From the NCBI GenBank assembly GCA_902799385.1, contig CADCAK010000003.1, positions 27,888 to 91,887 on the forward strand: DNA of 64,000 bases, read 5' to 3'. The notes under the pieces were generated by a model. That model searched no databases, was not told the DNA's origin, and saw only the letters and a program-made list of their open reading frames with translations. Shown in pieces: positions 6,169 to 32,356 of the stretch (positions within the stretch are counted from its first letter, which is position 1; each line of letters starts with the position of its first letter). A program made the translations under genes and the position numbers. The DNA is from an uncultured bacterium. Its GTDB lineage: Bacteria; Verrucomicrobiota; Kiritimatiellia; RFP12; UBA1067.

Positions 6169-6591
6169 TTCACCGCTCCCTACGGGAGCGACTGATCTTT
6201 GACATTGATCCCCGTGAGGCTGGTTGCATTGCCTCGCGTGGGGATCTACGGCCTGAGATTCGAATGAATCAACGGCAAAACCTCATGGTGCGGCAGAGAG
6301 CAAATCTGACGCGCCGAGGAGTCGCGGAAACGCATCCGACGCCCGCGGCACGTACGCAACAGCGTATTGAAGCTTTGACGAAAACCGCTAATTTTCACGA
6401 TGAGGCTTGATACGGTGGTGCGTCCGTGTGGTAATCACGCGGCGTACTTTCCTATTCGTGTTTCATCAGGGCTCTTAGCGGTGCCTCGTCAAGACATGAG
6501 TTTTGAGGGTTCGCCGCTTTTCTTTTGCCTCTTCGGCGGCGGTCTCTCCTACATGACGAAGAGGCTCGAAACAGAGGGAGTGGTTGCCGGT

Positions 6592-8592
6592 ATGGGATTG
6601 TTTTCTGACAAGTGCGAGGCTATTGTCGATGTCGCGACCGGAAGGGCTCTTTCCGGCGAAGATCTGAAGACGGCCGAGAAATTGCTTTCGGCGGTTGATC
6701 ATGACGGACGCGTCGCCCGGCTTTCGGGCGCCTCGGTGGTCAATGTCCTCGCTGAAAAGGGATGGGGCTTCTGCGGCAACAAGGTGCCGAAAAGAGCCCA
6801 TGTGTGCTCGAAATGCGGCACCCGCGCACCGGGCGGATGGATCAAATGCCCCGAGTGCGACAACTGGGTCGGCAACGAGTCTCATTTCTGCCCTCACTGC
6901 AACCACCGCATGCACCCAGAGGAGCGGATCGACCTCGCCGGCGGTGTTTGGGATCGCGAGCCGGGGCTTTTCGCGCAGAGATTTGAATGCGGGGATCTTT
7001 CACACCTGTCGCGGAGCGGGCTGTATGTCCAGGAGGGCTCCCGCGCGATATTGATGGACGGCGGCCGCGAGGTCAAGACGCTCGGCCCCGGACGCCACAC
7101 GCCGGAAAGCCTCGCCAGAAGCGTCAACTGGTTCGGCAATCCTCCGCCTCGCTCCGTGGTGATGGTCGATTCCGGCGACAACATCCTGAGGCTCGACTTT
7201 GGGTCTGCTAAAGACGTCCAGCAGCCTGTTGACGAGGAGCAGTCTTCGCTGCGCTCTGCGGAGGAGAAGCCACTTCGCGTCGTCGCCGAGGCTACGCTCA
7301 GGTTCGATCCTTCCGGCGCGGATGATTTCCTTGCGAACCTCATGAAGGATTCGCGCAAGATACCGTTCGGTGATATTGCGCAATTGATGTATGAAGAGGC
7401 ACTGCCGGCTGTCAAGACGCTGTGTGCGCAGACGACAATCGAAGATCTCGTCAAAGACCCGGAACGGCGCGAGCGCTTCGAGGACGCTATCGATAAGGCG
7501 GTGCGTCCGCTTCTCAAGCGCAACGGCATAGAGCTCGTGCGCATCGGCGCGGTTGACGTCATATCCGCCGACTATGAAGATTTGCGCCGGAAGTACGGCG
7601 AATTCGACCGTAAGCGCAGGGATGTCGAGTTCGACAGGAAAATGCTCGACGTCCTGGCGCAGGAGGACGTCCAGAAGCGCGAGGACTTTGCCGCACGCGA
7701 CGAGAGGGCGCAGGAAAGCGAACGCGCGAGAAGGAAGCGCTGGCAGGAGACGCAGGAATACATTGCACAGCTTGCGGCGGACAAGCAGATTGGCGAGATA
7801 GAACGTGACAACGCCGTTGAAATCGCAAAAAGAGTCGCGAAAGGCGAACTCGACAGAAAAGACGCCGAACTTGAACGCGCTTTGCGCATAGAGCAGTATG
7901 CGCGCGGGCTCGAGGATCAGGCCCACACGCTCAAACTCGACCTGAACCTCAAGAACTACAACCGTGAACAGCTGCTTGCGGATGCCGCGAACAAGGCGAA
8001 ACTGGCGGAGATCGCGCGCGAGGAGCGCGTCAAGGAGGCGAAGACCGACACGCTCGTCATGGGCGAAAAGGTCGATGAAGCCAAGTACGAGGCCGAGATC
8101 AAGCGCATCAAGTCGGACGCCCAGAAATACGAGGACATGAACGACCTCGACGTTCTTGAGCGCAAGTTTAAGATCGACAATTCCAGTCTCGGAGAGAGGG
8201 CTAAAATCCTCGCCGGCAAGTCTCCTCTCGAAATGATGGCGCTTGCGAAGACGGATGCCGAACGTCAGGGCTATCTGACTCTCGCGCTCAACGCGCAGAA
8301 GGCCGAGGCCGAGAAAGATGTCATTGGCGTTAAGAAGGATATGTCCCCCGAGCAGCTTCTTGCGCTTGCCGCGCAGCAGAATCCGACCGCCGCGCAGGCA
8401 CTCGCGGCGATGGCCGCCGCAGGCAACAACGCCGCCGAGCGCGTGGTCAAGGAGCTGAAGGAACAGCTTGACAAGCGCGAGACGCATGACAATGCCCTCA
8501 TGGAGCAGGTCGTGAAGATCGTCACGGAATCCGTGAAGCATCAATCGACCGTCGTCCAGGCGCCTCCGGCTAACCAGGTGTTCCAGAAGTGA
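6592..8592 (+). CDS. double zinc-ribbon + SPFH (band 7)/flotillin-like protein with long coiled-coil tail
   Basis: CSKCG..CPECD..CPHCN Zn-ribbons are followed by an SPFH-like core (GLYVQEGSRAILMDGGREVKTLGPGRH) and about 330 aa of E/K/A-rich coiled coil with flotillin-like EA repeats. The start is uncertain. MGLFSDK at 6592 is preferred, with in-frame ATGs also at 6400, 6496 and 6553. Confidence 0.7.
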   Translation: MGLFSDKCEAIVDVATGRALSGEDLKTAEKLLSAVDHDGRVARLSGASVVNVLAEKGWGFCGNKVPKRAHVCSKCGTRAPGGWIKCPECDNWVGNESHFCPHCNHRMHPEERIDLAGGVWDREPGLFAQRFECGDLSHLSRSGLYVQEGSRAILMDGGREVKTLGPGRHTPESLARSVNWFGNPPPRSVVMVDSGDNILRLDFGSAKDVQQPVDEEQSSLRSAEEKPLRVVAEATLRFDPSGADDFLANLMKDSRKIPFGDIAQLMYEEALPAVKTLCAQTTIEDLVKDPERRERFEDAIDKAVRPLLKRNGIELVRIGAVDVISADYEDLRRKYGEFDRKRRDVEFDRKMLDVLAQEDVQKREDFAARDERAQESERARRKRWQETQEYIAQLAADKQIGEIERDNAVEIAKRVAKGELDRKDAELERALRIEQYARGLEDQAHTLKLDLNLKNYNREQLLADAANKAKLAEIAREERVKEAKTDTLVMGEKVDEAKYEAEIKRIKSDAQKYEDMNDLDVLERKFKIDNSSLGERAKILAGKSPLEMMALAKTDAERQGYLTLALNAQKAEAEKDVIGVKKDMSPEQLLALAAQQNPTAAQALAAMAAAGNNAAERVVKELKEQLDKRETHDNALMEQVVKIVTESVKHQSTVVQAPPANQVFQK

Positions 8593-9878
8593 GCGAGACT
8601 GACGGCAGATGTCCGGCATGCCGAATGCCTGTCGGAGCGGATGACAGGTTCTGCGGGGTCTGTGGCGCTGCGCTCGACGTGGCTCCTGTTCCCTCCAGAC
8701 CGTCCTGCGGCGCCGTTGTGAAGCCGATGTTAGGCTTTGCCGTCAGATGCTGTTCGCCGCGCGCGATGCGCGTCGGGTTCCGGTCGTCGTTCTGCTTCCG
8801 GATGGAATCGTCGCGCGACGATCTGGTTGCGGCGACGATATCGCTCAAAAACGGCGACACGGTTCTCGACTCCAAGTCCGTGTCCGTGCCATGCGGAGAA
8901 TGCCGCATGGCAGTGACGCCGTCGGCGCCGGGGAGCATTTTCCTCGACATGGAACTTCGCATAGACTACATTTCGCATGGCGGAACTGAGATATACAGGT
9001 CCGACATTCACGCAAATGTCGAGTCAAGGGTTGAGGCTCCGCAGTCGGTAACTATCGCGCCGAACATCTCGCTCGACGGTTCCGTCGTGCGGCTGCTTGA
9101 CGGCAGCAACGTATTTTCCGTGTCGGGGCTGCCCTCGTCTGGACACGGCAGAGGAGAGGATCTGACGCGCTACGAGTGCGACCTGTCGAATCCCAGATAT
9201 CTGGACCTCTCGCTCGCGAAGTCGCCAGAGACCGTGACTCTGGCATCCGAGACGGCGGAGATTATGCTCGTTCACGGAGATTCCGCCGCTGTCGGGCGCG
9301 CGTCGTCGTCGGACTTCCAGATTCCGGTGTTCGATGAAAGCGGAAAGCGCGATGACTTTCTTTCCAAGCATGTATCCGGCACTCATTTCCATTTGGGGCT
9401 TCACGATGGGCGATGCTTTGTCTCCGACGGATGCGAAGGGCATCCGTCAACAAACGGAACGTCGGTTGACGGAGTCAGAATTCACCACGGAGGATCCGTC
9501 GCGATTGCGACAGGACGGAGCCATCACGTCGCAGCAATGTTCGCGGCATCGGGTGACAGGGAGCTTGTGCCGATGAGCGTGGACGTGTCCGGCGATCGAT
9601 GGACGCGAAAACCGTCGGGACTATTTCTGCGGCGCGAGGACGGCGTTGTGTCTGCCATGGCTGTGGTGTGGAGTGTCGCCGGCGTTGAACTTTCCGATGA
9701 CGTTTCCGTAGGCTGGGATGGTGCGAGGTTCTGCATCGCACACGGCGGAAAGAGACGTCCGCTGGCGATAGGCGACGAGATCACAGTCGGCGGAGTCGCA
9801 TATCGCGTCATGCCGCGCCATCAGAGATTCCCGAAAAAAACGGATTCCGAACAAAAAACAGAAAGGAGCAACAGATGA
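8589..9878 (+). CDS. zinc-ribbon + FHA-domain protein
   Basis: GTG 8589 overlaps the upstream TGA. The N-terminus is CPACR..FCGVCG. The C-terminal half has an FHA-like pattern (VGRASSSDFQIP...VSGTHFHL...STNGTSVDGVRI). Confidence 0.7.
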   Translation: MSETDGRCPACRMPVGADDRFCGVCGAALDVAPVPSRPSCGAVVKPMLGFAVRCCSPRAMRVGFRSSFCFRMESSRDDLVAATISLKNGDTVLDSKSVSVPCGECRMAVTPSAPGSIFLDMELRIDYISHGGTEIYRSDIHANVESRVEAPQSVTIAPNISLDGSVVRLLDGSNVFSVSGLPSSGHGRGEDLTRYECDLSNPRYLDLSLAKSPETVTLASETAEIMLVHGDSAAVGRASSSDFQIPVFDESGKRDDFLSKHVSGTHFHLGLHDGRCFVSDGCEGHPSTNGTSVDGVRIHHGGSVAIATGRSHHVAAMFAASGDRELVPMSVDVSGDRWTRKPSGLFLRREDGVVSAMAVVWSVAGVELSDDVSVGWDGARFCIAHGGKRRPLAIGDEITVGGVAYRVMPRHQRFPKKTDSEQKTERSNR

Positions 9879-10354
9879 TGAAACTGACAGGAAAGATGCT
9901 CTGCATCGCCGGGCTTGCGGCGGCTGTCGCAGGTTGTGCCACGCCGCCCCGGCACACGGTTTGCAGTGTGGAGGCGACGGCGGCATCACAAAGTGCATCG
10001 GGTCTGTCCGACGCTGTGGCGACCGGGGTGCGCGGCGATCTTGAGCGGCTTGGCTACCATGTGTTCACGGAAAAGTGCGGCAGGTGCGGCAACGCCGTGT
10101 CCGTGAACATCGCCATCGACAGGAAGGAAGCCGCTCGCCTTGATGTATGGGTGGCATACGATGCCACGGCCAGCGTAAAGGCCGTCGTCGGCAGGGACGG
10201 ACGGATACTCGGCGAGAAGACTTTCTCCGCAAAAGGCGTGCGCGGCAGGACGGAGAAGGAGGCAGAAGCCGGAATCCGCAAATCGCTTGTGGAACAGATA
10301 AACGCATGGCTGCCGTCGGTTCTTCCGCCGGTCGTCATCACCTCGGACATCTAA
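9875..10354 (+). CDS. lipoprotein, single copy of a domain shared with the next two genes
   Basis: Lipobox AVAGC is present and the ATG overlaps the upstream stop. The LGYHV...LGEKTFSAKGVRGRTEKEA...WL segment parallels the C-terminal domain of the 10374-11549 product. Confidence 0.6.
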   Translation: MMKLTGKMLCIAGLAAAVAGCATPPRHTVCSVEATAASQSASGLSDAVATGVRGDLERLGYHVFTEKCGRCGNAVSVNIAIDRKEAARLDVWVAYDATASVKAVVGRDGRILGEKTFSAKGVRGRTEKEAEAGIRKSLVEQINAWLPSVLPPVVITSDI

Positions 10355-10373: not shown

Positions 10374-11549
10374 ATGAAAACCATCATCGCATCGACGCTT
10401 GCCTCTGCCGCATTGATTGCGTGCGCGGAGCCGTTCGGGGCAGCTGAAAAGGCCGTGCTTCGCGACGTCGCAAAACAGGCCGAAGCCAAGTTGAAAGAGG
10501 CCGCGGCGTTCGAAGGGAAGGCCGTGACACTGCTGCCTGTCCATGGCGACGAAGACGGCTACATGGAAAGGCTCTTGATCGGAGCCGTCGTATTGTCCGG
10601 TCGAACGGGCGTGATATCAAACGACGAGAAGAACGACGAGCGCTTCAAGCGCATACTCGCCGACATCAAATGGGACGCTGTGCAGCGTCGTCTTTCCTCG
10701 ATCGATCCCGCCACGATAGACGAGCTTGGCAGACTGAAGTCCACGCAGATACTCATGGAGGCACGTCTCGACCTGACGCGTGCGACGACGAATGAATACG
10801 GAGAGGCTACGGGCGCGTCGGCGGAACTGAATCTGCTCGCGTACGCAGTCGAGACTAAACAGTACGTTTGGAATGCCAACATTGTGAAGGAGCCGGAGGC
10901 CCCGCCACCTCCGCCGCAGCTGCCGAAGCAGATCGCTTCTACAGCCGTATCGCCGCTTCACGTGGCCGTAGAGGCGAAGGCCGGAAAGAACGCGGAACGT
11001 GTGTCGGGGTTCGTGGAGACCTCGGTACGAGGCATGCTTGCGCAGCTGGGATATGTTGTCGATGGCAACCGCAAGCCGGATGTAATCGTGTCGCTAGAGA
11101 CATCCCGCGAGACGTTCGACCATACGGGCGGATGGTTCGTCTATGACGGGACTCTGAAGGTCAAGGCGAATGTCGTAGGCGCGGAAGCGAAACTTCTGGG
11201 CGAGACCTCCATCGCCGGTCGCGGCGCGAGAGGCCTCGGCGAGATTCAGGCAGACCGGAATCTCGCGGACGCTCTTGGAGAGCAGGCGGCGGGCTGGCTC
11301 AAGCGCACACTCAAATCCGACGCAGTCGGCTTCGAGGCTCTTCTGTTCTCGGTGTACACGCTCGATGCCGCAGACGCCGAGAAGATTCGCACCGCCGCAG
11401 CCGCGATGGACGGAACGCGCGTCGCGACAACAGAGTCCACAGACGAGGCCAACGGATGGACTACTTTCAGGGTCGTTTACGAGAAGGCGAAATTCCCCGG
11501 CGGGTTCGCCGCCATGCTTTTCGCCGCGAATCCGGAACTCTTGAAGTAA
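10374..11549 (+). CDS. secreted/lipoprotein with TolB-N/LpoB/FlgO-like N-terminal module
   Basis: A signal peptide with LIAC is present. KAVTLLPVHGDEDGYMERLLIGAV...LGRLKSTQILMEARL matches the logic of small periplasmic alpha/beta lipoprotein domains. It is a paralogue of the next gene. Confidence 0.55.
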   Translation: MKTIIASTLASAALIACAEPFGAAEKAVLRDVAKQAEAKLKEAAAFEGKAVTLLPVHGDEDGYMERLLIGAVVLSGRTGVISNDEKNDERFKRILADIKWDAVQRRLSSIDPATIDELGRLKSTQILMEARLDLTRATTNEYGEATGASAELNLLAYAVETKQYVWNANIVKEPEAPPPPPQLPKQIASTAVSPLHVAVEAKAGKNAERVSGFVETSVRGMLAQLGYVVDGNRKPDVIVSLETSRETFDHTGGWFVYDGTLKVKANVVGAEAKLLGETSIAGRGARGLGEIQADRNLADALGEQAAGWLKRTLKSDAVGFEALLFSVYTLDAADAEKIRTAAAAMDGTRVATTESTDEANGWTTFRVVYEKAKFPGGFAAMLFAANPELLK

Positions 11550-11559
11550 GGAGCAGACA

Positions 11560-12675
11560 ATGAATACAGCAAAAAAGATCATAGCATCCCTTGCATGCGC
11601 GGCGTCGTTTCTTGCCGCGACGGCGGAAGTCGATGAAGACGCGCGCGCCGCGTTCATCGATGCGGCGAAGGAGGCGGAAACCGGCCTTCGCGCTGCGCCG
11701 ATTCCGGCCGGTTCCGCCGTGGCGCTGCTTCCGGTCGCGGGGACGCTTGGCGAGGACTGGATGGCCGGTCTTCTCCAGAACGCCGTCACCGCCGCCGGAA
11801 AAACCTGCGTCGTCGCGAAGCACGATCCCGCGTTCGCCGCAATTCTCGCGGAAATCGAATGGGATGCGCGCAAGTCCGACATTCTCGACCCGAAGACCAT
11901 CGACAGGTTTGGGGCTCTCAAGTCGGCTCAGATTCTTCTCGCGGCGAATGTCACCGTCGCCCAGAAGACGGCAAAGGACGACGATGTGCGCTGCGTGTTC
12001 GTTGAAGTCGAGCTTCACGCCGTCGAGATCTCGACGAAGAAGCATCTCTGGGGCGGAATGTTCGCGAAGAGACGATACATCCCCGGAAACGGAGCGGAAT
12101 CGGTTGATGTCAGCGAGATTCCGCTCAAGCTCCGCGAAGCCATGCAGGAGAACCTCCGCTCCCGGATTGCGGAGTCGATCACGGCGTCCGCGAAACTCGG
12201 TGCGGTCAAGACGGTCGCCATTCTCCCGATATCCGCCGACACGCGCGCGTACATCGGCGATCTGACAAGGGATGCGGTCTCTCGCACGAGACTGACCCCG
12301 AAGAATCTGGACATCCTGACTCTTGCCGAAGCAAGGCACGCCATGCGGGACTCCGAGGCGTCCGATGCGATAATGTACGGCTCGCTGCGGGATCTCTCGG
12401 TTTCAAGAAACGATGAAGATCCCGTTTCCGAAGTCCGGTCGTACAACTGCGAAGTGCAACTTTGCATCGAAAACGCCAAGACGCGCGAACAGCTGTGGAG
12501 CGAAACGTTTCTGGTATCCGAGAAGGAGGTCAAAGACGGCTGGTGGTATGCGCTGACGCGCTACTTCCCGTCCCTGAAGAGCAGGCCGTGGCTGCTCGTG
12601 CTGGTTCCTCTTCTCGGACTGGTATTCCTGATCGTGCTGTGCAAGGTTCTGCGCGCCATGACGCGCGTGAGATAG
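11560..12675 (+). CDS. secreted paralogue of 10374-11549 with C-terminal TM anchor
   Basis: The first ~130 aa show the same motif order as the previous gene (AVALLPVAGTLGEDWMAGLL...FGALKSAQILLAANV). The terminal hydrophobic helix is LLVLVPLLGLVFLIVL. Confidence 0.55.
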   Translation: MNTAKKIIASLACAASFLAATAEVDEDARAAFIDAAKEAETGLRAAPIPAGSAVALLPVAGTLGEDWMAGLLQNAVTAAGKTCVVAKHDPAFAAILAEIEWDARKSDILDPKTIDRFGALKSAQILLAANVTVAQKTAKDDDVRCVFVEVELHAVEISTKKHLWGGMFAKRRYIPGNGAESVDVSEIPLKLREAMQENLRSRIAESITASAKLGAVKTVAILPISADTRAYIGDLTRDAVSRTRLTPKNLDILTLAEARHAMRDSEASDAIMYGSLRDLSVSRNDEDPVSEVRSYNCEVQLCIENAKTREQLWSETFLVSEKEVKDGWWYALTRYFPSLKSRPWLLVLVPLLGLVFLIVLCKVLRAMTRVR

Positions 12676-12678
12676 CGC

Positions 12679-13539
12679 ATGGACAGCGTGTCTATGGTGT
12701 GCGCAGTCTGCGGGCAGACATTGCCAAACAGGTACGCCGTGGCTGGACGGTGCGAATCGCCCGGCTGCGGCGCGGTTTTCTGCGCACTCCATTGGCATGG
12801 CGGCAACAGGCTGTGTCCGGCGCACGGATGGTGCGCCGGCGAGCCGAAAGGCAGAGAAACGGAGGCTGAAAGAAAAATGAACGATGGATCGCTTGCGCCG
12901 CGTGAGGCGTCGAAGATGAATGAAGGACTCGGTGCGTCTGCCGAGAAAGGCGGCTGGTTCAAGTCGCTTATGGATGGAGCCCAGACGCTTGGCAAGGCAT
13001 CGGTGGCGCTTGTGAACAGGCTGCGCGGCATACGCGACCCCGAGGCTGCCATAGCCGAGCTTGACGGACAGCTCGCCGCCACGCGCGCGAAACGCGAGCC
13101 GCTTTCCGCCAGATACGAGGAGCTGTATTCGCGCATTGCCGAACGCAAGAAACTGTGGCAGTCCGCCGCGCCGACACGAAAGAAGATGCTTGAGATGGAG
13201 CTGAAGACGCTCCTTGCCGAGTACAAGAGCGTCGAAGGACAACTTTCGACACTCTTCGAGCACGAGCGGCTTATCGTCACCGTGCGCGGGCGCACTCTCG
13301 AGCTTGCGGCGCAGGGTCTGTCCCTGCCTAAGGTCGAGAACGTGGACCGCCTGACGGACGACATAGAGAACGCCGTGGACGAGACGGAAGACCTTTCCGA
13401 CGCCGTCGCGGATCTCGAAAAGGCCGGCGTCCGCCGCGAAAGGACATCCGTCAATCTCGAAGACGCGCTTGCGGAGTTCGGAGACCCGGAGACGGAGGCC
13501 GCGCCGCAGAAGGAGTCTCCAGGCGTGGAGACGGAATAA
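12679..13539 (+). CDS. Cys-rich zinc-binding head + Snf7/ESCRT-III-like helical protein
   Basis: The N-terminus is CAVCG..C..C..C..H.H..C..H. The C-terminal ~170 aa have a heptad pattern and motifs (KKMLEMELKTLLAEYKSVEGQLSTLFEHERLI ... VENVDRLTDDIENAVDETEDLSDAVADL) that parallel Snf7/CHMP4 helices 2-5, followed by an acidic tail. Confidence 0.55.
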   Translation: MDSVSMVCAVCGQTLPNRYAVAGRCESPGCGAVFCALHWHGGNRLCPAHGWCAGEPKGRETEAERKMNDGSLAPREASKMNEGLGASAEKGGWFKSLMDGAQTLGKASVALVNRLRGIRDPEAAIAELDGQLAATRAKREPLSARYEELYSRIAERKKLWQSAAPTRKKMLEMELKTLLAEYKSVEGQLSTLFEHERLIVTVRGRTLELAAQGLSLPKVENVDRLTDDIENAVDETEDLSDAVADLEKAGVRRERTSVNLEDALAEFGDPETEAAPQKESPGVETE

Positions 13540-13555: not shown

Positions 13556-14620
13556 ATGAAATATTCATACGATGGTTCGTCGCTCAAGACGGAAAAGACG
13601 AAGTTGACACCGCCAACAAGGTCTTCAGGACAGCCCGTGCCGGTTGTTAAAAGGAGGAAGACGCCTTTGTTCGTAACGTTAATTCTGTTTTTTGCAGGAG
13701 TCGGCATAACAAGCATGTTTCTGGATGTATGGGATCGGGTGACATCGTCCGAAGGCGCGGGGATCGCCCCTGCCGCAGAGCAGGGGAATCCCTGCGGCGG
13801 AACTGCGGAGGCGAGGCATAAACCCGAACGCAGCCCGTCCATCAAGGTCGAAGACGTGCGGGACTATCTTACGCCGTCGAAGGCGGAGATGGAGCAGTTA
13901 TACGCGTACGTCGTCAAGTCGCCTGTGGTCGCGGGCAACATCCAGTACCGCGACATGATGGACGGCATGCCGCTCGACTACATTGCGACGAACGACACTG
14001 TCAATGCGTTCGCAGGGCGGCGCGACAGCATCGGAACGAACGGCGCGGTCCGCATCGGACTCAAGATGACGGTGTTCGGCGGCATGGCAAGATACGCCAG
14101 ACTCGTGGGACTCGCAGCCGCGCAGGAAAACACCGGGCGCGAACCGGCCTTGAAGCGGCTCGTCGAGACCATGCCACGCAGCATATATTCGCGCTGCTCC
14201 GAGGAGGAGGCGATAAAAGCGATCGAACGCAATTCCCTCGTGCAGGCGCTCGCCGATCCGGCGGCGAGGCAGAAAGCCGTGTCCTATTCGTCGGGCATGC
14301 TCATAAGCGTGCTTGCACACGAGACGGGACACCTCGTGCTGGGACATCTCCTCTCCAACGGCTCCGCGAAACCCAATCTCGAGATTTCGCGCAACCACGA
14401 GAGGGAGGCCGATTCCTTCGCGTCTTCCGTGATAAGCGCGAGCCCGTTCGGGGAATACATCTTCGCGGGGACGCTTTTCCTGCACTACGCGCTGGCGATG
14501 CAGAACGACGGAGATTCGGACGCCGGGAGCAACCATCTGCTCTCCAGGGAGCGTTTCGAGAACTTTGTCCGCGCCAACCGCGACAAGGCCGCCGCCATGG
14601 GGATAAGCCTGGAGAAGTAG
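13556..14620 (+). CDS. membrane-anchored HExxH zinc metallopeptidase (M48 / M78 ImmA-IrrE-like)
   Basis: ATG 13556 follows the upstream stop. One TM helix is present (LFVTLILFFAGVGITSMFL). The HETGHLVLGH motif is followed about 22 aa later by EREADSFA. It is a paralogue of 24799-25737. Confidence 0.65.
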   Translation: MKYSYDGSSLKTEKTKLTPPTRSSGQPVPVVKRRKTPLFVTLILFFAGVGITSMFLDVWDRVTSSEGAGIAPAAEQGNPCGGTAEARHKPERSPSIKVEDVRDYLTPSKAEMEQLYAYVVKSPVVAGNIQYRDMMDGMPLDYIATNDTVNAFAGRRDSIGTNGAVRIGLKMTVFGGMARYARLVGLAAAQENTGREPALKRLVETMPRSIYSRCSEEEAIKAIERNSLVQALADPAARQKAVSYSSGMLISVLAHETGHLVLGHLLSNGSAKPNLEISRNHEREADSFASSVISASPFGEYIFAGTLFLHYALAMQNDGDSDAGSNHLLSRERFENFVRANRDKAAAMGISLEK

Positions 14621-14623
14621 GAC

Positions 14624-17047
14624 ATGTATTCTCCTGCCGACATCGATAAGACGATACCGGGAAGCGCCAGTGAAACCGCGGCGCTCGGACGCATCGACAA
14701 GTACGAGCTGGTGCGCGAGCTCGGCGAGGGCGGATTCGGCGCGGTGTATCTCGCGAGAGACACGGTCGCCGGAATCGATGTCGCCATAAAGGGGCTGCCG
14801 CCGGAGGTAAAGCACAACGAAAGCGAACTTGAGTCGATCCGCGCCAACTTCGCGCTCGTTTCGCGGCTCCGCCATCCGAACATCGTCGGCCTTCGCGACC
14901 TCCACCGGGCGGAGCGCGTAAGCTACGCCTCCAAGGAGGTCGAAGAAAAGCTCCGCGTCTTTGAGCGGGATACGATGGTCGTGATGGACTATGCGCCGGG
15001 CGCGACGCTCGCGAAGTGGCGCAGGCAGTTCCCCGATGCCAAGGTTCCGCTCGACAAGGCGATTGAAATCGCGCGGCAGATCGCGTCCGCTCTCGACGCC
15101 GCCCACGCGCAGAAGATTCTGCACCGCGACGTCAAGCCGGAGAACGTGATGGTGGAGACGCGGGAGGACGGCGCATTGGTCGCACGCGTTCTCGACTTCG
15201 GCCTCGCGGCGGAAATCCGCTCGTCGATGGGCCGCGTTTCGCGCAAGATTCTCGACACCTCCGGGACACGCCCATACATGGCGCCCGAGCAGTGGCTTGG
15301 CGAGGAGCAGAAAGCGGCGACCGACCAGTACGCGCTTGCGGTGCTGTTCTACGAACTCGTCACCGGCAAGACGCCGTTCTCGTCCGTTTTCGACTGCGGC
15401 GACACGGCGGTCATGCGCCTTGCAGTGACGACAGACGCGCCGAAGATTCCGGCATCGCTGCCGAAGGCGGTGCGCCGCGCACTGGATACGGCGCTCGCGA
15501 AGACGCCGGACGAGCGTTTCACGACCTGCGGCGATTTCGTGGCGGCTCTGGAGGGGAAAAGAGTCTCACGCAGAGGCGCAGAGACGCAGAGGAAGAGTGG
15601 TGCAGTCAAGATGCTTGGGCTCCTTGCGCTGCTGGCAGTACTCGCCGTCGGCGTCTGGCGGTTTGTCGGGCGGGAAACGACATCCGTCGCGCCGTCGCCC
15701 GCGTCTGCCGAACTCACGCCGCCCGTTGCATCCGGCGACATCAGCAATGTTCCTCCAAGTTCCGATCCGTCGCCCGTCACTGTCGTTGATCCCCCCAAGC
15801 CTGTCGTCGTTGTGCCTCCGGCAGATGACGGCGCGGAGTCTGCGCAAAAGCGTGACGCCGAGTTCGTTCTCCTGAAGACTCGCATCAACATCAAGAAGTC
15901 CGACGCAAAACGCAAGATGGAGGCCGTCGCGGAGTTCCGCGCCGACCCGGAAGGCCTTGTGGAGCGTATCGCCTCCGCAGACAGTCAGTGGAATACCATT
16001 TCCGCGCTATCCGTTCCGGGCACTCTCGAAGAGGCGCAGGCGGCGTTCGACATGGCCGACAAGGCTGAATCGCAGATCGCCCTCGCCCTTGACTGGCTGC
16101 AGAAGAACAAGACGGGGCGAGACGCGGCAAAGTCCGCCAGGGCGGAGATCGCCGCGTTGCTGAAAGGCGATGCCGTGACCTTCAAGGCCGAGAAGTACGC
16201 TTCGTCCGCGTATCGGGACGGAAAGCGTCTGCGCGACGAAGGTGAAGCCGCTTTTGGCAAGGGAGACTTCGCCGGGGCTCGCCGGCTCATGAAGCTGGCT
16301 CATGCGAAGTTCGTCGATGCGGCAAAGGACGCCAAGGCATTTTTCGTAAAGACGACGCTTGGATCGGCACGGGAGTATTTCAGCGCCAGTCAATGGCAGT
16401 CTTGCATCGCAGAATGCGACACACTGCTCGGTTGGGATGCGGCAAATGTTGAGGCTAGAAGGCTCAAGGCTCAGGCTGAAGAGTGCAAAGAGGCGGCTCG
16501 AAAAGAGGCCGAACGCAAAGCGAAGGAGGATGCTGCCAAGATAGAGGAGGAAAGCAAGGCAAAAGAAGAGTTAGCGCACAAGGAGGCCGCAGAAGCGGCG
16601 CAGATCGCGGCGGGGAGGAAAAACGCAGCGGAGAAACCCGCAACGGAACGAATGGCAAATACGGAGTCTGGTAGTAAGGTGGAAGAGGGAGTTGCTCTGC
16701 ATAATCGCAGATTTTCATGTGAGATTGAGAGTGGCCTAATCGAGAGGAAGAATAGTTCTAACGCAATATGTTACTATGGAAACGTGAAAGTCAGATGCAG
16801 TTGTTTTTTGTCTGATTCCGAATTTGCAATGGCGATGCGCGATGGAAACGACGAGATTGCGTCGATACTTCTTTGTGGCGATGTCAGGATAAATGGCGAC
16901 GTCATGTCAGCAACTGCGGAGTCCGCAAGATTCGATGTGTCGTTGCGCAAATTGACGCTACTCGGGAAAAGCGCGTCAGAGCCTGCGCGTCTGCATTCCG
17001 GTGATGTAGCTAAGAAAGGTGAGAGGATCGTGTATGAATTCAAGTAG
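14624..17047 (+). CDS. Hanks-type Ser/Thr protein kinase, single TM, large extracytoplasmic region (K1)
   Basis: Kinase motifs GEGGFGAVY, VAIK, HRDVKPEN, DFGLA and YMAPE are present. The TM helix is LGLLALLAVLAVGVW. It is followed by about 450 aa of coiled-coil/helical and beta-rich sequence. Confidence 0.9.
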   Translation: MYSPADIDKTIPGSASETAALGRIDKYELVRELGEGGFGAVYLARDTVAGIDVAIKGLPPEVKHNESELESIRANFALVSRLRHPNIVGLRDLHRAERVSYASKEVEEKLRVFERDTMVVMDYAPGATLAKWRRQFPDAKVPLDKAIEIARQIASALDAAHAQKILHRDVKPENVMVETREDGALVARVLDFGLAAEIRSSMGRVSRKILDTSGTRPYMAPEQWLGEEQKAATDQYALAVLFYELVTGKTPFSSVFDCGDTAVMRLAVTTDAPKIPASLPKAVRRALDTALAKTPDERFTTCGDFVAALEGKRVSRRGAETQRKSGAVKMLGLLALLAVLAVGVWRFVGRETTSVAPSPASAELTPPVASGDISNVPPSSDPSPVTVVDPPKPVVVVPPADDGAESAQKRDAEFVLLKTRINIKKSDAKRKMEAVAEFRADPEGLVERIASADSQWNTISALSVPGTLEEAQAAFDMADKAESQIALALDWLQKNKTGRDAAKSARAEIAALLKGDAVTFKAEKYASSAYRDGKRLRDEGEAAFGKGDFAGARRLMKLAHAKFVDAAKDAKAFFVKTTLGSAREYFSASQWQSCIAECDTLLGWDAANVEARRLKAQAEECKEAARKEAERKAKEDAAKIEEESKAKEELAHKEAAEAAQIAAGRKNAAEKPATERMANTESGSKVEEGVALHNRRFSCEIESGLIERKNSSNAICYYGNVKVRCSCFLSDSEFAMAMRDGNDEIASILLCGDVRINGDVMSATAESARFDVSLRKLTLLGKSASEPARLHSGDVAKKGERIVYEFK

Positions 17048-17566: not shown

Positions 17567-18961
17567 ATGCCGTTGTTCATGAGCGAGAGCGAAAGACGCC
17601 GCGACGCGCGGCGGAGGCGGCGCAGGATGCTGCGCGAGGTTCAGAACGCGGTCGATGCCGCGCGGATGAAGCGCGACGAGATGCTGAAGCGCCGAGCGGA
17701 CGACTGGAACGCCGCGCGCGTGTCGCTCGCGAAGGGCGACGAGGCGGACGCAAGACGGCGGCTCGAGTCCGTGCGCACCTGCGACGCCGCGCTGGCGCGT
17801 CTCGACGCCCGTCTTGCCCGCTTCGAGGCGATGGAGCGCGAAATGGAGTGCGCCGACGCGGACGCCACGTTCGACGAATCTTCTGCCGCATTCTCGCGCT
17901 TCGTCAAGGAGCCTGAGTCTGAGCATGAGGCCGAGCCTGTTTCTTTGCCATCGATAGACGAGATGATGGAAAAACTCGCAGGAGAACCGCTTGTTGAAAC
18001 TGTCGGCGGAAAGGACCGTCCGAAGCAGCCACCTGTCGCGCCGCCGGTTAGCGCCGACGGCGATGTGGAGACGGCGGCGTCGAAGTGGACTGCCACGAAG
18101 CCCGACAATATCCGCCTTGACGATGTAATCGGTCTTGACGACGCCAAGGCGGTCGTGCGCGACGCTCTTGTGAACCCGGTGAACCATCCCGATGTTTACA
18201 AGACGCTGAAGGTCGCTCCCGGGACCGGACTTCTCCTGTACGGGCCGCCGGGAACAGGCAAGACGCTTTTCGCCAAGGCCGTCGCGAACGAGATGGACAT
18301 GCCTTTTATGGAGGTCCGCTGTGACAAGTTGAAGAGCAAGTATGTCGGAGACACGGAGAAAAATGTCGCGGAGATGTTTCGCGCGGCGCGCGCATTGAAG
18401 AGATGCGTTCTCTTTCTCGATGAATGCAACGCGATTCTGTCGCGTCGCGGCGACCAGAAGGTGTGCATGGTGGAGCAATTTCTCGTCGAGTTAGACGGAT
18501 TCGCCGCGTCGGACGCGCAGCTCTTCGTCCTTATGGCGACGAATCTTCCGTGGACGCTCGACGGCGCGATCACGCGTTCGGGACGCTTGAGCGAGGCGGT
18601 ATATGTCGGGCTCCCCGACGAGGCGACGCGGCGCAAGCTGTTCGACATTGCTTTCAAAGATGTTCCGCTCGCTTCGGACGTCGATCTTGACGCGCTTGCG
18701 GCGGCGACGGAAGGTTTCAGCGGCGCGGACATCGCGGCCAAGGGCGGGCTCTGCCACAAGGCGAAGACATACGCCGCCCGTCGGTGGATCGCGCGTCGCG
18801 AGGCGGGGAACGCGGCTGGCGGCGGCACTTCCGAAAGCGCAGTGGAGTGCGTGACGGGCGAAGATGTCAAGAAGGCGCTTGCGGAGGTTGTGCCGATTTC
18901 TAAGTCCGCTCCCGATGTCGTGGAACGGAACAAGAACTATTCCATGAAAAAGGAGGGCTGA
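17567..18961 (+). CDS. AAA+ ATPase (classic AAA clade, Vps4/katanin-like features) with helical N-terminal domain
   Basis: GGAGGAAG lies upstream of ATG 17567. Motifs present are Walker A GPPGTGKT, Walker B VLFLDECN, and ATNLPWTLDGAI...RSGRL. The N-terminal ~100 aa are an Arg/Ala/Glu-rich helical region. Confidence 0.85.
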   Translation: MPLFMSESERRRDARRRRRRMLREVQNAVDAARMKRDEMLKRRADDWNAARVSLAKGDEADARRRLESVRTCDAALARLDARLARFEAMEREMECADADATFDESSAAFSRFVKEPESEHEAEPVSLPSIDEMMEKLAGEPLVETVGGKDRPKQPPVAPPVSADGDVETAASKWTATKPDNIRLDDVIGLDDAKAVVRDALVNPVNHPDVYKTLKVAPGTGLLLYGPPGTGKTLFAKAVANEMDMPFMEVRCDKLKSKYVGDTEKNVAEMFRAARALKRCVLFLDECNAILSRRGDQKVCMVEQFLVELDGFAASDAQLFVLMATNLPWTLDGAITRSGRLSEAVYVGLPDEATRRKLFDIAFKDVPLASDVDLDALAAATEGFSGADIAAKGGLCHKAKTYAARRWIARREAGNAAGGGTSESAVECVTGEDVKKALAEVVPISKSAPDVVERNKNYSMKKEG

Positions 18962-18963
18962 AT

Positions 18964-19551
18964 ATGGACTGGAAATTGGACGACAGCAGCGTGGGACGGG
19001 AATTGAAGACCGGCGCGGGCCCGGGCAGACGAGAGCGCTCGCTTGCGAATGACGTTGCATACGACGTGCAGCGCGTCCTTTACCGCAAATGGCTCATAGC
19101 GATTATAGAATTCGCATTGAAGGCTTTGCTTGTCTTCATCTGCGGATGGCTCATCTGGCGCGGCGCGGCGAGTCTGTTCAGCCATGCGCCAACGCAGACC
19201 GCTCAGGCTGTGGAGGCTGCGGCATCAACGTCGGCCTCGGTTGCACCCGCCCCTGCGGAGGAGACGGGCGCCGTCGTCAATATATCCCTTGTCTGCATAC
19301 TTGCGATACTGATGCTGCCGGTTGTGACGATCTCGTTCATACGTACGATGGTGTCCAAGCGGTCGAACGGTGTCAATGCGTTCACTCTCGGCATCTATAC
19401 GGCAATCGACTTCATACTCTCGTATTTTGTCGTTGGTCCGAAGTTCGACTCAACGGTGAAGGCTGTCGCTTTCATCGGGATGGGCATCTTCTCGCTGATG
19501 TACAATTTCATGGTCATGAACTATGCTCTGAAACTTGAGGACGGACGTTAA
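18964..19551 (+). CDS. polytopic membrane protein (about 4 TM)
   Basis: It starts 3 nt after the AAA stop. It has four long hydrophobic segments. No family was recognised. Confidence 0.55.
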   Translation: MDWKLDDSSVGRELKTGAGPGRRERSLANDVAYDVQRVLYRKWLIAIIEFALKALLVFICGWLIWRGAASLFSHAPTQTAQAVEAAASTSASVAPAPAEETGAVVNISLVCILAILMLPVVTISFIRTMVSKRSNGVNAFTLGIYTAIDFILSYFVVGPKFDSTVKAVAFIGMGIFSLMYNFMVMNYALKLEDGR

Positions 19552-19554
19552 GCA

Positions 19555-20943
19555 ATGTCATTTCTTTCCGATATAGACAAGACGATATCCGGGGACACGG
19601 CTGGAACGATCCTATCCGGCCGCTATCGCATTGTTCGCCAGCTCGGAACTGGCGGGATGGGGGAGGTGTGGCTTGTCGAGGACACGCAGCTTGACGACAA
19701 GCCGTTCGCGATCAAGATGCTGCCATCGATTCTCATCTCCAACAAGCGAGCGTATCGCCAGCTTAAGGACGAGGCGCTTGTGGCGATGAAGCTTGTTCAT
19801 CCAAACATCGTCACGCTCCGTGCGTTCGAGGAGAACAACGGCAATCCGTTCCTCGTGATGGACTATATCGACGGCGAGACGCTGGACGACTACCTGGCCG
19901 ACAAGGGTAAACGCTCGGAGGATGAGACCGTTCGCATTCTCAGGCCCATCGCCGCCGCGCTTGACTATGCTCACTCGAAAGGCATCGTCCATCGCGACGT
20001 GAAGCCCGGTAACGTGATGATCGCAAAGGACGGCACGCCCTATATCCTCGATTTCGGCATTGCCCGACAGTTAAACGAAGCGAATTGCGCTATGGAGTCC
20101 ATGCCTTCCGGTACACGGAAATATATGTCGCCGGAGCAGTTGCAGGGGCACCCCCCGGCGCCATCGCAGGATGTGTACTCGTTCGCGGCAATGTTGCGGG
20201 AGTGCATGAATGGCGATGTGCCAGCAGGGGTAATGGCTGGTCTCGCTAAGAAACCAGAAGACAGACCGAAGACTTGTGTTGAGGTGCTGGATGGGGTTGA
20301 CTCACGCAGAGACGCCGATCGGCAGAGTCCTCGGAGCGGCAGTTGGAAAGCACCTATCGTCGCCGCATTGCTAATCGCGCTTGCTGGAGGCGTGTGGTTG
20401 TGGCATCGTGGGCGAGGAGAACCGAGCAAGGCCGAAGTTGTGTATGGGACAAACCCAGTAGATATCTCGACCAATGTCACGCAGGAGATTCGAACTCCGG
20501 GTGCAGAAACAAATTTTACATCAGATATACCACCAATCCAGGTAGACATTCCTCAGCCTTCAACCAATCCGCAGCCAGTCACCGTCGAACAGCCGAAGTC
20601 TGCGGCTCCGGTTCCTGAGACGGATAATCCGGCGAAGCCGCCGCCCGAGAAAGAAAAAGAGGTAATGCCTCCACCCTCCAAGGCGGACAAGGCTATGCGC
20701 AAGGCAGACGAGGCAAAAAAACTTGCGCTGGAGGTTATGAGTAAAGTCGAGGAAACAGAAGGATTTCCTTTCAGCGATGAAAGCCGTCTTGCCGATGCAT
20801 GGTTCGCGGCCACGAGCAGAAAGGCAGCGGCTGACAGCGAATATGAGCTGGGCGAGTATTCCAAAGCGGCTGCCGGCTATCGCAATGCCGAAAATCAATT
20901 CGCCAAAATTCTTGAGAAAATCAAAGAAGGAGAGTCCAAATGA
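19555..20943 (+). CDS. Hanks-type Ser/Thr protein kinase, single TM (K2), shortened C-lobe
   Basis: Motifs GTGGMGEVW, AIKML, HRDVKPGN and DFGIA are present. The kinase domain is about 75 percent identical to K3/K4 but about 29 aa shorter after SPEQ. The TM helix is IVAALLIALAGGVWLW. Confidence 0.9.
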   Translation: MSFLSDIDKTISGDTAGTILSGRYRIVRQLGTGGMGEVWLVEDTQLDDKPFAIKMLPSILISNKRAYRQLKDEALVAMKLVHPNIVTLRAFEENNGNPFLVMDYIDGETLDDYLADKGKRSEDETVRILRPIAAALDYAHSKGIVHRDVKPGNVMIAKDGTPYILDFGIARQLNEANCAMESMPSGTRKYMSPEQLQGHPPAPSQDVYSFAAMLRECMNGDVPAGVMAGLAKKPEDRPKTCVEVLDGVDSRRDADRQSPRSGSWKAPIVAALLIALAGGVWLWHRGRGEPSKAEVVYGTNPVDISTNVTQEIRTPGAETNFTSDIPPIQVDIPQPSTNPQPVTVEQPKSAAPVPETDNPAKPPPEKEKEVMPPPSKADKAMRKADEAKKLALEVMSKVEETEGFPFSDESRLADAWFAATSRKAAADSEYELGEYSKAAAGYRNAENQFAKILEKIKEGESK

Positions 20944-21860
20944 ATAGTCGTCTAACATCAGGCTTGTTCATTATAGCTTCCGTCTTCCTTGCGGGATGTT
21001 TTTCGTATGTTCCGCCGGATCCACCGCCGAACTGGACGGCGTTGCTTGTGGAACGCGTACCGCAGCTCGGCGACGATTTTCTCCGCTCAACGGCGATGAC
21101 GGAGGCCAAAAAGCCTGTACTTCTGGTGTTGGGCGAGATGCCAGATTCCACTCGCCATCGTGTCGAGGCGACGTTGCTTCTGAACAAGATGAAAGCATAT
21201 CTCGTTAAAAACTCTGGCGGTCAGATTCATGTGTTCGATACGTCGGCAGACGTGGAAAGCTACCGCCGCAAGCGGATGAAAGAGACTATGCATCAGAGAT
21301 TCAAGGGTGACATAGCGTTGCTCGCTTCGAGAGTAGATGCCAAGTACAGCCGCCGCAATGTCAAGATTGCTGTCAGAGAGGTGGCAAACCAACGGAACGT
21401 TGGGGATGTTTGTGCCGACGGCTTCATTTCTCTTCTTCGCGACAAACTCGTTTCGGACGGGATGGGGAATATTACGTTTCTTGACTGGGATAAACGCAGC
21501 GAAGCGGATTACATACTCGGAGGCGAGTTCTCGAAGACGGGCCTTTCGGGCGGCGGATCGCCGTCGGGAGAGGACAGCCGCGACGAGCAGCGTCTGCGCG
21601 TGACGTTCACCGACGCCGAGACTGGCGATGTGGATTTCGAGAGCAGCGTGATTGCGACCTCCCGCGACTTTGCCCCGTCCATCTGGGCTACGTACATTCT
21701 TTCGGGAAGATTGGAAGAAATATCGAAAGACCACTATTCCTCAACGGACGATTACGTGCGGATAGAATTCACTGTCGTGGATCCGGATTCGACTCTTGTC
21801 CGGTGGACGGGTTCGTCCGAGATCGCGATAACGACAAACAAGTCGGTGCTGTATTATTGA
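20940..21860 (+). CDS. LpoB-like (COG3417-type) lipoprotein
   Basis: The ATG overlaps the K2 stop and lipobox FLAGC is present. PVLLVLGEMPDSTRHRVEATLLLNKMKAYLVKNSGGQIHVFD and the terminal VDPDSTLVRW parallel LpoB-family motifs. It is a paralogue of 28697-29821. Confidence 0.55.
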   Translation: MNSRLTSGLFIIASVFLAGCFSYVPPDPPPNWTALLVERVPQLGDDFLRSTAMTEAKKPVLLVLGEMPDSTRHRVEATLLLNKMKAYLVKNSGGQIHVFDTSADVESYRRKRMKETMHQRFKGDIALLASRVDAKYSRRNVKIAVREVANQRNVGDVCADGFISLLRDKLVSDGMGNITFLDWDKRSEADYILGGEFSKTGLSGGGSPSGEDSRDEQRLRVTFTDAETGDVDFESSVIATSRDFAPSIWATYILSGRLEEISKDHYSSTDDYVRIEFTVVDPDSTLVRWTGSSEIAITTNKSVLYY

Positions 21861-21870
21861 GGCATAGACA

Positions 21871-24798: not shown

Positions 24799-25737
24799 AT
24801 GAAGATTAAAAAAGAGAGTGCTATGGGTGGAAATGACGAATTGAACGCGCGGATAAAGTCGCGCATGGATGCGATGAACAAGCGGATTGCCGACCGCATG
24901 GCTGCGCTGGATGCAAGGCTGGGCGGAACTGTAGCGGTTGTGAAGGAGTTTCCGGATGGGTCTCTTGAATCCTGGCTTCAGCCCGACTTTGATGACATCA
25001 AGATGCTATTTGACTACATACGCGGGTCTAATATTGTTCGGGACAATCCTGTGTATAGTGCCGCGCTTGATAAAGTGGACCTATTGTTTCTGACCGATCC
25101 GGCGAATCCTGAATCAAACAAGGTAAATGCAGGGGCGTATCGTGGAGGGAGGAAAATTACGCTGTATGCAGGTTTTGTGCGGCTGGCGAGAATCGCCGGT
25201 TCGGCACTCGCCGCCGACCTCGGCGGTGGCGCCGTTTTCAAGCGTCTTTTGGACGTTGTATTTGAAAATCCAGCCTGGGCGGATTCCATTACAATGGATG
25301 AGGCAACGGATCTTTTTATCGCACTGGGGCTGCGTCATGATGCGATCATTGTCGACGAGGCCATGCGCCATGAGGCTGTTGACCGATCTTCCGCTGCGAT
25401 TCTTGCCACTCTTGCACACGAAGCAGGGCATATCGCACTTGGTCATGTCAACGCGAATGTCGATTACTATAAGGTGAATCTTGAAGTCGCCAGAAATCAG
25501 GAGCGTCAGGCGGATTCATTCATGTCGTCCGTAATTGCGACAGTCCCATTCGGCGAACACATGTTTGAGGCCGAAATGTTCAACGACTTTCTTAATGCTG
25601 TGGCTGAGAAAAGTCGAAAGGAAAAGTCAGATAGGGGTCACACTCATCCACTTTCTGTTGAGCGTTACAACAATCTTCTGAAAGATCATCCCGACCTTGC
25701 AGAAAAGTATGGATTTTTGCAACTTGAGTCAGCGTGA
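24799..25737 (+). CDS. HExxH zinc metallopeptidase (M48 / M78-like), soluble paralogue of 13556-14620
   Basis: HEAGHIALGH is followed by ERQADSFMSSVIATVPFGEH, collinear with HETGHLVLGH...EREADSFASSVISASPFGEY in the paralogue. Confidence 0.65.
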   Translation: MKIKKESAMGGNDELNARIKSRMDAMNKRIADRMAALDARLGGTVAVVKEFPDGSLESWLQPDFDDIKMLFDYIRGSNIVRDNPVYSAALDKVDLLFLTDPANPESNKVNAGAYRGGRKITLYAGFVRLARIAGSALAADLGGGAVFKRLLDVVFENPAWADSITMDEATDLFIALGLRHDAIIVDEAMRHEAVDRSSAAILATLAHEAGHIALGHVNANVDYYKVNLEVARNQERQADSFMSSVIATVPFGEHMFEAEMFNDFLNAVAEKSRKEKSDRGHTHPLSVERYNNLLKDHPDLAEKYGFLQLESA

Positions 25738-29821: not shown

Positions 29822-29844
29822 TGTTTAAAAGAAAGGATAACGAC

Positions 29845-30324: not shown

Positions 30325-30326
30325 GG

Positions 30327-32299: not shown

Positions 32300-32356
32300 G
32301 GCGCTTGTGGCGGTTTGGCAGTAAGCCCATAGGCGCAACAGTGGTAATTGCGATTT

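Follow-up and report, generated by a model that had tools for sequence, protein, structure and literature searches.

The window is a 64,000-nucleotide stretch of DNA from an uncultured bacterium (contig CADCAK010000003.1, positions 27,888 to 91,887), and at 12679-13539 on its forward strand it contains an open reading frame (ORF) of 286 amino acids, ATG to stop, that encodes a zinc-finger head, a linker, and a helical body resembling proteins of the endosomal sorting complex ESCRT-III. On balance this protein, called the target here, is judged to be probably a highly divergent paralogue of the Snf7/CHMP branch of ESCRT-III that carries a zinc-finger head and belongs to a bacterial ESCRT-III/AAA system, although homology of the target to ESCRT-III is not proven. 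The gene itself is real and conserved. It was singled out in a preliminary description made from the sequence alone, and both the ORF and the peptides quoted from it (DPEAAIAELDGQL, KKMLEMELKTLLAEYKSVEGQLSTLFEHERLI, VENVDRLTDDIENAVDETEDLSDAVADL, and NLEDALAEFGDPETE) are found where that description placed them. What had been observed there is confirmed, while the interpretation survives in part: a profile match of the Snf7 type and the linkage to partner genes stand, but the expectations for Pfam, for Foldseek, and for a contact between the tail of the target and the N-domain of the ATPase do not.

Linkage to Snf7 and AAA genes

Genomic context is the strongest evidence for an ESCRT-III identity. 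The target lies within a co-directional, tightly packed run of genes extending from about 6400 to 36456, with 4 nucleotides between the stop of the upstream gene and the target ATG, and 17 nucleotides between the target stop and the start of the next gene. The target had been described as sharing an operon with an AAA ATPase and a flotillin, and this is upheld, as the genes are co-directional, closely packed, and linked across many genomes.

The ATPase gene of the window (17567-18961) encodes an in-frame fusion. Its N-terminal region of approximately 150 residues (17567-18016, forward strand) is a diverged hairpin of the Snf7 family (α0-α3), which matches the hidden Markov model (HMM) of the Kiritimatiellae Snf7 family at E 3e-40 over positions 4-121 and the Snf7 protein of a related locus (L001) at 3e-11 in BLASTP. 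The remainder (18074-18961, forward strand) is an AAA+ module, consisting of AAA and AAA_lid_3, that is of the classic clade and Vps4/CdvC-like; it matches Pfam AAA at E 7e-36, and NCBIfam CdvC is among the top three matches of the ATPase at E 6e-50, below the CdvC cut-off. The window ATPase has the pore loop SKYVGDTEK and an ATNLPW motif, while the ATPases of the system as a whole have pore loops of the form SKW(H/Y/S)GE(S/A)E, the motif ATNxPW, and a helix PSxTxxxLxxYExFxxxxG at the C-terminus. These motifs resemble those of yeast Vps4. Because exactly the same 464-amino acid protein occurs on at least five independent contigs, the fusion is not an assembly artefact. The family HMM finds no stand-alone Snf7 gene elsewhere in the window. 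That this fusion is the system's genuine Snf7 protein escaped the preliminary description.

Stand-alone ATPases of the system have a conserved three-helix N-domain of approximately 70 amino acids, which the window ATPase lacks, the Snf7 hairpin taking its place. An MIT identity for the stand-alone N-domain was considered and is not supported, with hhalign giving 0.5% against three Vps4 MIT sequences and only a 10-residue match resembling YLDRAEKLK. The acidic tail of the target had been proposed to bind the N-domain of the ATPase at 17567-18961; since that N-domain is a Snf7-family hairpin and is not MIT-like, the proposal in its original form fails for this genome. It is more natural to suppose that the target assembles together with the Snf7 hairpin borne by the ATPase.

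Related loci or contigs, labelled L001 to L013, show the same partners in other arrangements. The order in L001/L002 is a target homologue, an M48/U49-like peptidase, a 211-amino acid Snf7-family protein, and an AAA ATPase. The Snf7-family protein of L001 (12331-12966, 211 amino acids) matches Pfam Snf7 at E 6e-6, with 26.4 bits against a cut-off of 27.3, and relatives of the 211-amino acid protein carry the NCBI name “Snf7 family protein [Kiritimatiellae bacterium].” Target homologues also stand beside Snf7-family and AAA genes in L008 and L012. More distant relatives without the head (P0343 and P0212, with approximately 25% identity) are found on unrelated contigs in minimal triads consisting of a zinc-less target-like gene, a Snf7-family gene, and a Vps4-like AAA gene with a lid (L003/L004:8001-11805 and L005:647-3696). 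The Snf7-family members of these triads match the family HMM at E 1e-59 to 1e-66, and the AAA members have weak Vps4_C matches. The L003 triad is followed by a membrane protein homologous to that at 18964-19551 of the window, and its flanks contain papain-like Peptidase_C1 and vWA/TerF-like genes. Pairing with an AAA of the Vps4/CdvC type is thus seen in the window, L001/L002, L008, L012, L003/L004, and L005, and is not universal.

Domain anatomy and profile similarity to Snf7

The target family comprises more than 200 proteins of Kiritimatiellae, mainly from rumen and gut. One homology search returned 135 relatives at E<=1e-3, and an exhaustive HMMER scan of 1.84 billion proteins gave 106 representatives. 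The named relatives and genome matches are Kiritimatiellae metagenome-assembled genomes from the rumen of goats and sheep and from comparable sources, which agrees with the earlier impression of a genome like those of the Planctomycetes-Verrucomicrobia-Chlamydiae (PVC) superphylum, of which Kiritimatiellae is a member. Public gene calls often place the start of a target homologue at an internal ATG, creating false “headless” proteins of 220-245 amino acids. For example, the full ORF in L012 (4091-4999) extends upstream beyond the called start and encodes the head in frame there, and L013:1311-1973 is the window's own gene, called as 220 amino acids. A head that is optional within Kiritimatiellae was rejected for the apparently headless close relatives checked, since these are start-codon miscalls.

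The head (residues 1-55; 12679-12843, forward strand) is a predicted two-zinc Cys/His module with the pattern CxxC-x13-C-x4-C-x4-C-x2-H-x7-C-x2-H. Its eight ligands (C8, C11, C25, C30, C35, H38, C46, and H49, with either H or C at position 38) show no or almost no variation in 40 of 40 head-bearing relatives and are sufficient for two zinc sites. A Cys/His head had been recognized from the outset and is real, but the pattern first given for it needs correction, as it overlooked C35 and included H40, which is kept in only 23 of the 40 relatives. In an AlphaFold2 model built from a 44-sequence alignment, the head has a predicted local distance difference test score (pLDDT) of approximately 96. 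Weak Pfam matches to zf-CRD (PF17979) occur in 40 of 44 relatives, the best at E 1.2e-5, and the target itself reaches E 0.048 and 14.4 bits, under the cut-off of 26.3. Compared with the cross-brace or treble-clef two-zinc fingers (zf-CRD and MYND-like), the predicted zinc ligands are conserved and the HMM match is weak. The head is followed by a linker predicted to be disordered (residues 56-90; 12844-12948, forward strand), which has a pLDDT of 40-46 and varies in both length and sequence across the alignment.

The helical body was predicted by AlphaFold2 to have helices at residues 92-104, 106-115, 121-162, 165-212, 219-254, and 260-264, and a second model, restricted to residues 88-286, has an identical layout. 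The first two are short amphipathic helices with the motif LGxGAxAL (residues 91-117; 12949-13029, forward strand) and hydrophobic moments of 0.42-0.45, and form a candidate α0 membrane-binding element. In the zinc-less relatives this amphipathic segment is the extreme N-terminus, and hhalign pairs it with the N-terminus of Snf7. The hairpin that follows (residues 121-212; 13039-13314, forward strand) is formed by α1 (121-162) and α2/3 (165-212), of 42 and 48 residues; it is modelled with a pLDDT of 92-98 and is colinear with Snf7 α1-α3 in hhalign. The tip of the hairpin has the conserved sequence KKKxYxxAPPARKK, within the longer motif IAAKKKxYxxAPPARKKILExELK. An acidic α4 with the motif V/IDxLTDDIEdAxxxaED (residues 219-254; 13333-13440, forward strand) is the segment that best matches α4 of Snf7/CHMP4, and its conserved motif in full is IDxLTDDIEDA...AED..DAV.DL. 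The last element is a short helix, (D/E)xxLAxF (residues 258-268; 13450-13482, forward strand), a candidate α5 or element resembling an MIT-interacting motif (MIM), in which L264 and F267 are invariant in the family alignment and the model has a local pLDDT peak of approximately 85 at residues 260-264. The zinc-less relatives have a MIM1-like (D/E)xxLxxRLxxL at the C-terminus in its place. As modelled, the helix lengths of α0, the 42- and 48-residue hairpin, α4, and the short α5 fit those of Snf7.

Profile-profile comparison was made with hhalign, on sequence profiles alone, against two small reference sets, one of six canonical ESCRT-III proteins and one of three PspA/Vipp1 proteins, all of them strong matches to their Pfam families (E 1e-16 to 1e-72). 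The main profile, containing the target family and its distant relatives, aligned with ESCRT-III at a probability of 33-43% and P of 2.4e-4 to 4.6e-4, in colinear order over 151-153 columns. For the zinc-less clade the figures are 22-69% and P of 4.5e-5 to 1e-3 over 137-160 columns, and in its best run the alignment extends from the N-terminal LSKFGDKFG (against WSSLFGWTS of Snf7) to beyond α5. The colinear alignment includes the basic patch at the hairpin tip and the IDxLxDxIE of α4. The order of helices proposed from the sequence alone, and the motifs then matched to Snf7 in three places (α1; the tip and α2; the acidic α4 with IDxLxDxIE), are recovered by hhalign in the same register.

Controls with reversed templates gave P of 0.02-0.16. 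In a permutation control, the ESCRT-III templates were shuffled in blocks of 7, 14, or 28 columns so that local composition and periodicity were kept. For the main profile, not one shuffled template out of 360 came up to the real score; for the zinc-less clade, 3 of 360 did. In the same set-up the accepted relationship between PspA and ESCRT-III has a probability of only 4.5%, and the Snf7-family paralogue of the operon reaches 94.5% against canonical ESCRT-III. As judged from these profiles, the similarity is real, directed at Snf7, and sub-threshold, which is suggestive and is not proof. Direct searches of the Protein Data Bank (PDB) sequences with phmmer and with profiles returned designed coiled coils, flagellin, and, at E 0.2-0.6 only, Snf7/CHMP4B. 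The Snf7 core (5fd7/5fd9) was matched at E of approximately 0.57, with profile positions 30-157 aligned to residues 5-138 of the 5fd7 chain at E 0.58, and CHMP4B (3um3) at E 0.2-0.6; in each the register is colinear and the match is below significance.

The remaining cassette and competing interpretations

The first gene of the cassette (6400-8592, forward strand) encodes a protein of the SPFH/Band_7 type that has a double zinc ribbon (DZR) at its N-terminus and a long coiled coil (Band_7 E 3e-8, DZR E 2e-6), and is syntenic in L001, L006-L008, and L010-L012. Its real start is probably at 6592, because orthologues align only from residue 65 (MGLFSDK...) onward. Upstream of it is a nucleotidyl transferase gene in the window and an HTH_17 gene in L001 and L012. 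The next gene, the position of which is conserved, encodes a zinc-ribbon and FHA-domain protein (8589-9878, forward strand; FHA E 2e-6, Zn_Ribbon_1 E 2e-4). Three paralogous lipoproteins or secreted proteins follow (9875-10354, 10374-11549, and 11560-12675, forward strand), which are weakly LpoB-like (LpoB E 0.007) and have N-termini resembling signal sequences or lipoboxes; both their paralogy and their synteny are seen.

Downstream of the target, its most constant neighbour on that side is an HExxH metallopeptidase of M48/U49(Lit)-like type (13556-14620, forward strand; Peptidase_M48 E 0.0016), with Peptidase_U49 recorded for orthologues. A second HExxH (M48/U49-like) peptidase, at 24799-25737, is a paralogue with 33% identity. 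The Ser/Thr protein kinase at 14624-17047 (forward strand; Pkinase E 4e-43) is the first of five in the cluster. The ATPase is followed by a polytopic membrane protein (18964-19551, forward strand) that is 41% identical over 81 amino acids to L003:10954-11805 (E 5e-15). Tandem paralogous modules at 19555-23331, 26319-31721, and 32348-34972 are made up of a kinase, an LpoB-like lipoprotein, a small ORF, and a TPR-like protein of approximately 480 amino acids; the module kinases are 58-78% identical to each other, and two have C-terminal FGE-sulfatase domains. The co-directional run ends with a gene for an ATPase_2 and DUF234 protein (“archaeal ATPase”) at 35134-36456.

Several results weigh against assignment of the target to ESCRT-III. 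In loci L007, L010, and L011 the genes retained are those for the SPFH protein, the FHA/zinc protein, the lipoproteins, the target, and the peptidase, with no Snf7 or AAA gene nearby, so that the tightest partners of the target are not of the ESCRT type. The preliminary description had named the Pfam profiles Snf7 (PF03357) and PspA_IM30 (PF04012) as one check, and the target has a significant match to neither, with nothing found for Snf7 at E<=1; NCBIfam and PADLOC scans of the target also gave nothing significant. In single-sequence Pfam scans Snf7 was matched by 4 relatives in a set of 44, at E 0.022 in the best case, and by 4 in a set of 80, at E 0.0055 in the best case, and unrelated coiled-coil families (such as FUSC, Syntaxin, and YtzH) match as often across the same 124 relatives, so that these eight weak matches are at noise level and are not used as support. 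Word-indexed iteration from the zinc-less clade collected ten close proteins, none annotated as Pfam Snf7. Foldseek searches of the PDB with the full-length and helical-only AlphaFold2 models found no match below E 0.05, and the generic helical hairpins that were returned have entries for Asgard ESCRT-IIIB, Vipp1, and Snf7 scattered among them at E 0.4-1. Removal of the zinc head left this outcome no better. The preliminary description had named structure hits limited to generic coiled coils, with no ESCRT-III hairpin architecture, as grounds for abandoning its proposal; the outcome comes close to this, and the structure search, taken alone, would count against it. The profile comparison has shortcomings of its own: the hhalign probabilities of the target family are all under 70% and below conventional thresholds, the reference alignments are small (six and three sequences, checked by Pfam alone), an acidic and compositionally biased helix contributes some of the score, and a score of 28-29 is obtained when the family profile is aligned with itself reversed. 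Finally, hhalign finds no similarity between the target profile and the Snf7-family paralogue that these operons encode (less than 3%).

Much of this would fit a different protein altogether, a non-homologous coiled-coil adaptor or scaffold in an SPFH-metallopeptidase cassette for envelope quality control, like HflKC-FtsH, with a convergent resemblance to Snf7. The genes for the SPFH-DZR protein, the FHA/zinc-ribbon protein, the lipoprotein, and the HExxH peptidase are the most constant neighbours of the target, and the loci without nearby Snf7 and AAA, the noise-level Pfam matches, the generic hairpins from Foldseek, and the nil profile similarity to the operon's own Snf7 all speak for such an adaptor. 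It is nevertheless considered unlikely, if far from negligible, given that the alignment with Snf7 is colinear nearly end to end and exceeds the permutation controls, that the distant triads of target-like, Snf7, and AAA genes have no SPFH or peptidase gene within the module, and that the distant relatives have an amphipathic N-terminus like that of ESCRT-III as well as a MIM1-like end.

The cassette may also be viewed as an anti-phage or abortive-infection island with a Lit-like U49 peptidase, kinases, and an IetA/IteA-like AAA, in which the target would be a sensor or scaffold. The neighbouring peptidase weakly matches Peptidase_U49/Lit and capP, the ATPase matches IetA/IteA models at E 1e-36, and the kinases match PD-T4-6 models; however, these matches are generic and at the level of domains (AAA, Pkinase, and an HExxH stretch of approximately 40 residues), while for the target, SPFH, FHA, lipoprotein, and Snf7 proteins PADLOC gives no system beyond E 0.003. 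Unlike a mobile defence island, the cassette keeps its synteny among divergent Kiritimatiellae and adjoins housekeeping genes, and a role in defence is accordingly regarded as improbable.

An ordinary protein of the PspA/Vipp1 family would be the usual bacterial relative of ESCRT-III, and PspA operons with Band-7 and zinc-ribbon proteins exist, such as ydjFGHI of Bacillus subtilis (PMC11237479). Among the families listed by Pfam, PF04012 is matched by neither the target nor any of the 124 relatives, and in hhalign the target family gives P of 0.03-0.4 against PspA/Vipp1, the level of the reversed controls. The match of the target is thus of the Snf7/CHMP type, as the preliminary description had held in placing it nearer to the Snf7 branch than to PspA/Vipp1, and a PspA identity is effectively refuted at the level of sequence and scarcely credible. 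The 42- and 48-residue hairpin helices are also short for PspA.

Hardly any likelihood is given to membership in the CT398/HP0958/MSMEG_4306 class, RpoN/flagellar-associated chaperones with a coiled-coil hairpin and a zinc ribbon: although they are the top Foldseek matches in both searches (5y06 at E 0.055-0.061, also 4ilo and 3na7), the matches are not significant (E 0.055-0.3, with a root-mean-square deviation of approximately 30 Å and TM-scores of 0.16-0.43) and reflect the hairpin alone because they are unchanged after removal of the zinc head, there is no Pfam match to that family at E<=1, an RpoN/flagellar gene context is not seen, and the zinc ribbon of the class is C-terminal, opposite to the N-terminal head of the target.

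Proposed mechanism, known systems, and meaning

If the target is a divergent ESCRT-III paralogue, its anatomy and neighbours suggest how it may work. The amphipathic α0-like helices (residues 91-117) would attach to the cytoplasmic membrane, and the hairpin of α1 and α2/3 would polymerise, probably jointly with the Snf7-family paralogue, as A-type and B-type subunits pair up in Asgard archaea and eukaryotes. The acidic α4 and the (D/E)xxLAxF helix may control assembly or provide contacts between subunits. The zinc head may be an adaptor for recruitment or nucleation, for which the SPFH scaffold, the zinc-ribbon/FHA protein, and the HExxH peptidase are candidate targets. The Vps4/CdvC-like AAA ATPase would disassemble or remodel the polymer; in the window the Snf7 hairpin is carried in cis on the ATPase, and it is proposed that the ATPase thereby becomes part of the polymer itself, with no separate N-domain needed to recruit it. 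Localisation and control could come from the SPFH scaffold, the peptidase, and kinase/FHA signalling, and the presence of the lipoproteins, the FHA protein, and five Ser/Thr kinases suggests that the machine is under the control of envelope signals through phosphorylation. The process served is inferred to be membrane repair or remodelling.

A broader claim is put forward more tentatively, as a possibility that falls short of being favoured. Kiritimatiellae, together with some other uncultured bacteria that have the zinc-less triad, may possess a complete machine of the ESCRT-III/Vps4 type that is separate from PspA/Vipp1. It would consist of two ESCRT-III paralogues, one a Snf7 protein and the other ultra-divergent, with a zinc-finger adaptor head gained in Kiritimatiellae, together with an AAA of the meiotic clade and a membrane partner, and would be wired to SPFH and Ser/Thr-kinase/FHA proteins.

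The nearest comparison is with ESCRT-III of the Snf7/CHMP4 type (PF03357), known from eukaryotes and Asgard/TACK archaea, with which the target, as modelled, shares the order and approximate lengths of α0, the hairpin, the acidic α4, and the short α5. The target gene likewise lies beside those of a second ESCRT-III paralogue and a Vps4/CdvC-like ATPase. It differs in failing to match Pfam, in having a two-zinc finger and disordered linker before α0, in having (D/E)xxLAxF and not a canonical MIM, and in its bacterial host, and its cassette adds SPFH, FHA, lipoprotein, peptidase, and kinase genes. The Kiritimatiellae Snf7 family protein of approximately 211 amino acids shares the operons of the target, the approximate size of its helical body, and an amphipathic N-terminal start, and presumably is its partner in the polymer; unlike the target, it is a demonstrable member of Snf7 and has a MIM1-like C-terminus.

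In PspA/Vipp1 (IM30), and specifically in the B. subtilis operon of PspA, YdjG (ZnR), YdjH, and YdjI (SPFH), a helical hairpin is linked to SPFH/Band-7 and zinc-ribbon modules as it is here (PMC11237479). The hairpin of the target is shorter, however, it has no PF04012 signal, and its zinc module is fused to the body itself. PspA systems have no Vps4-like ATPase (PMC7619361), whereas the target cassette has one. The archaeal “Meth_adaptin” loci are ESCRT variants with SPFH and zinc-ribbon proteins (Makarova et al. 2024, PMC10936438); they include adaptin-like and ProX genes, and they resemble the target cassette in composition.

Bacteria have been reported to have relatives of ESCRT-III (PspA/Vipp1) with no Vps4-like partner, the combination of ESCRT-III and Vps4 being confined to archaea and eukaryotes (PMC7619361, PMC10936438). 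Associations of Snf7/PspA with AAA in bacteria have been described as only occasional, with Vps4-like ATPases transferred to bacteria (PMC11237479). In the literature searched, no ESCRT system of Kiritimatiellae is described. Machine annotation already covers the Snf7 paralogue, while no earlier description seems to exist of the zinc-headed family and its zinc-less relatives, of the conserved triad, or of the Snf7-AAA fusion.

The cassette joins a Snf7-family protein and a Vps4/CdvC-like ATPase, a pairing that the literature denies to bacteria. Even if the target is not ESCRT-III, it is still a conserved and uncharacterised partner of a bacterial Snf7/AAA module. If it is a paralogue of ESCRT-III, the sequence space of the superfamily would be extended, and the system would offer, from a bacterium, an ESCRT-III polymer built of two subunits together with its ATPase, as well as a natural ESCRT-III-AAA fusion in which to study the engagement of ATPase and polymer. 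It would also bear on how PVC bacteria came to have ESCRT machinery, whether by ancient inheritance or by transfer from archaea.

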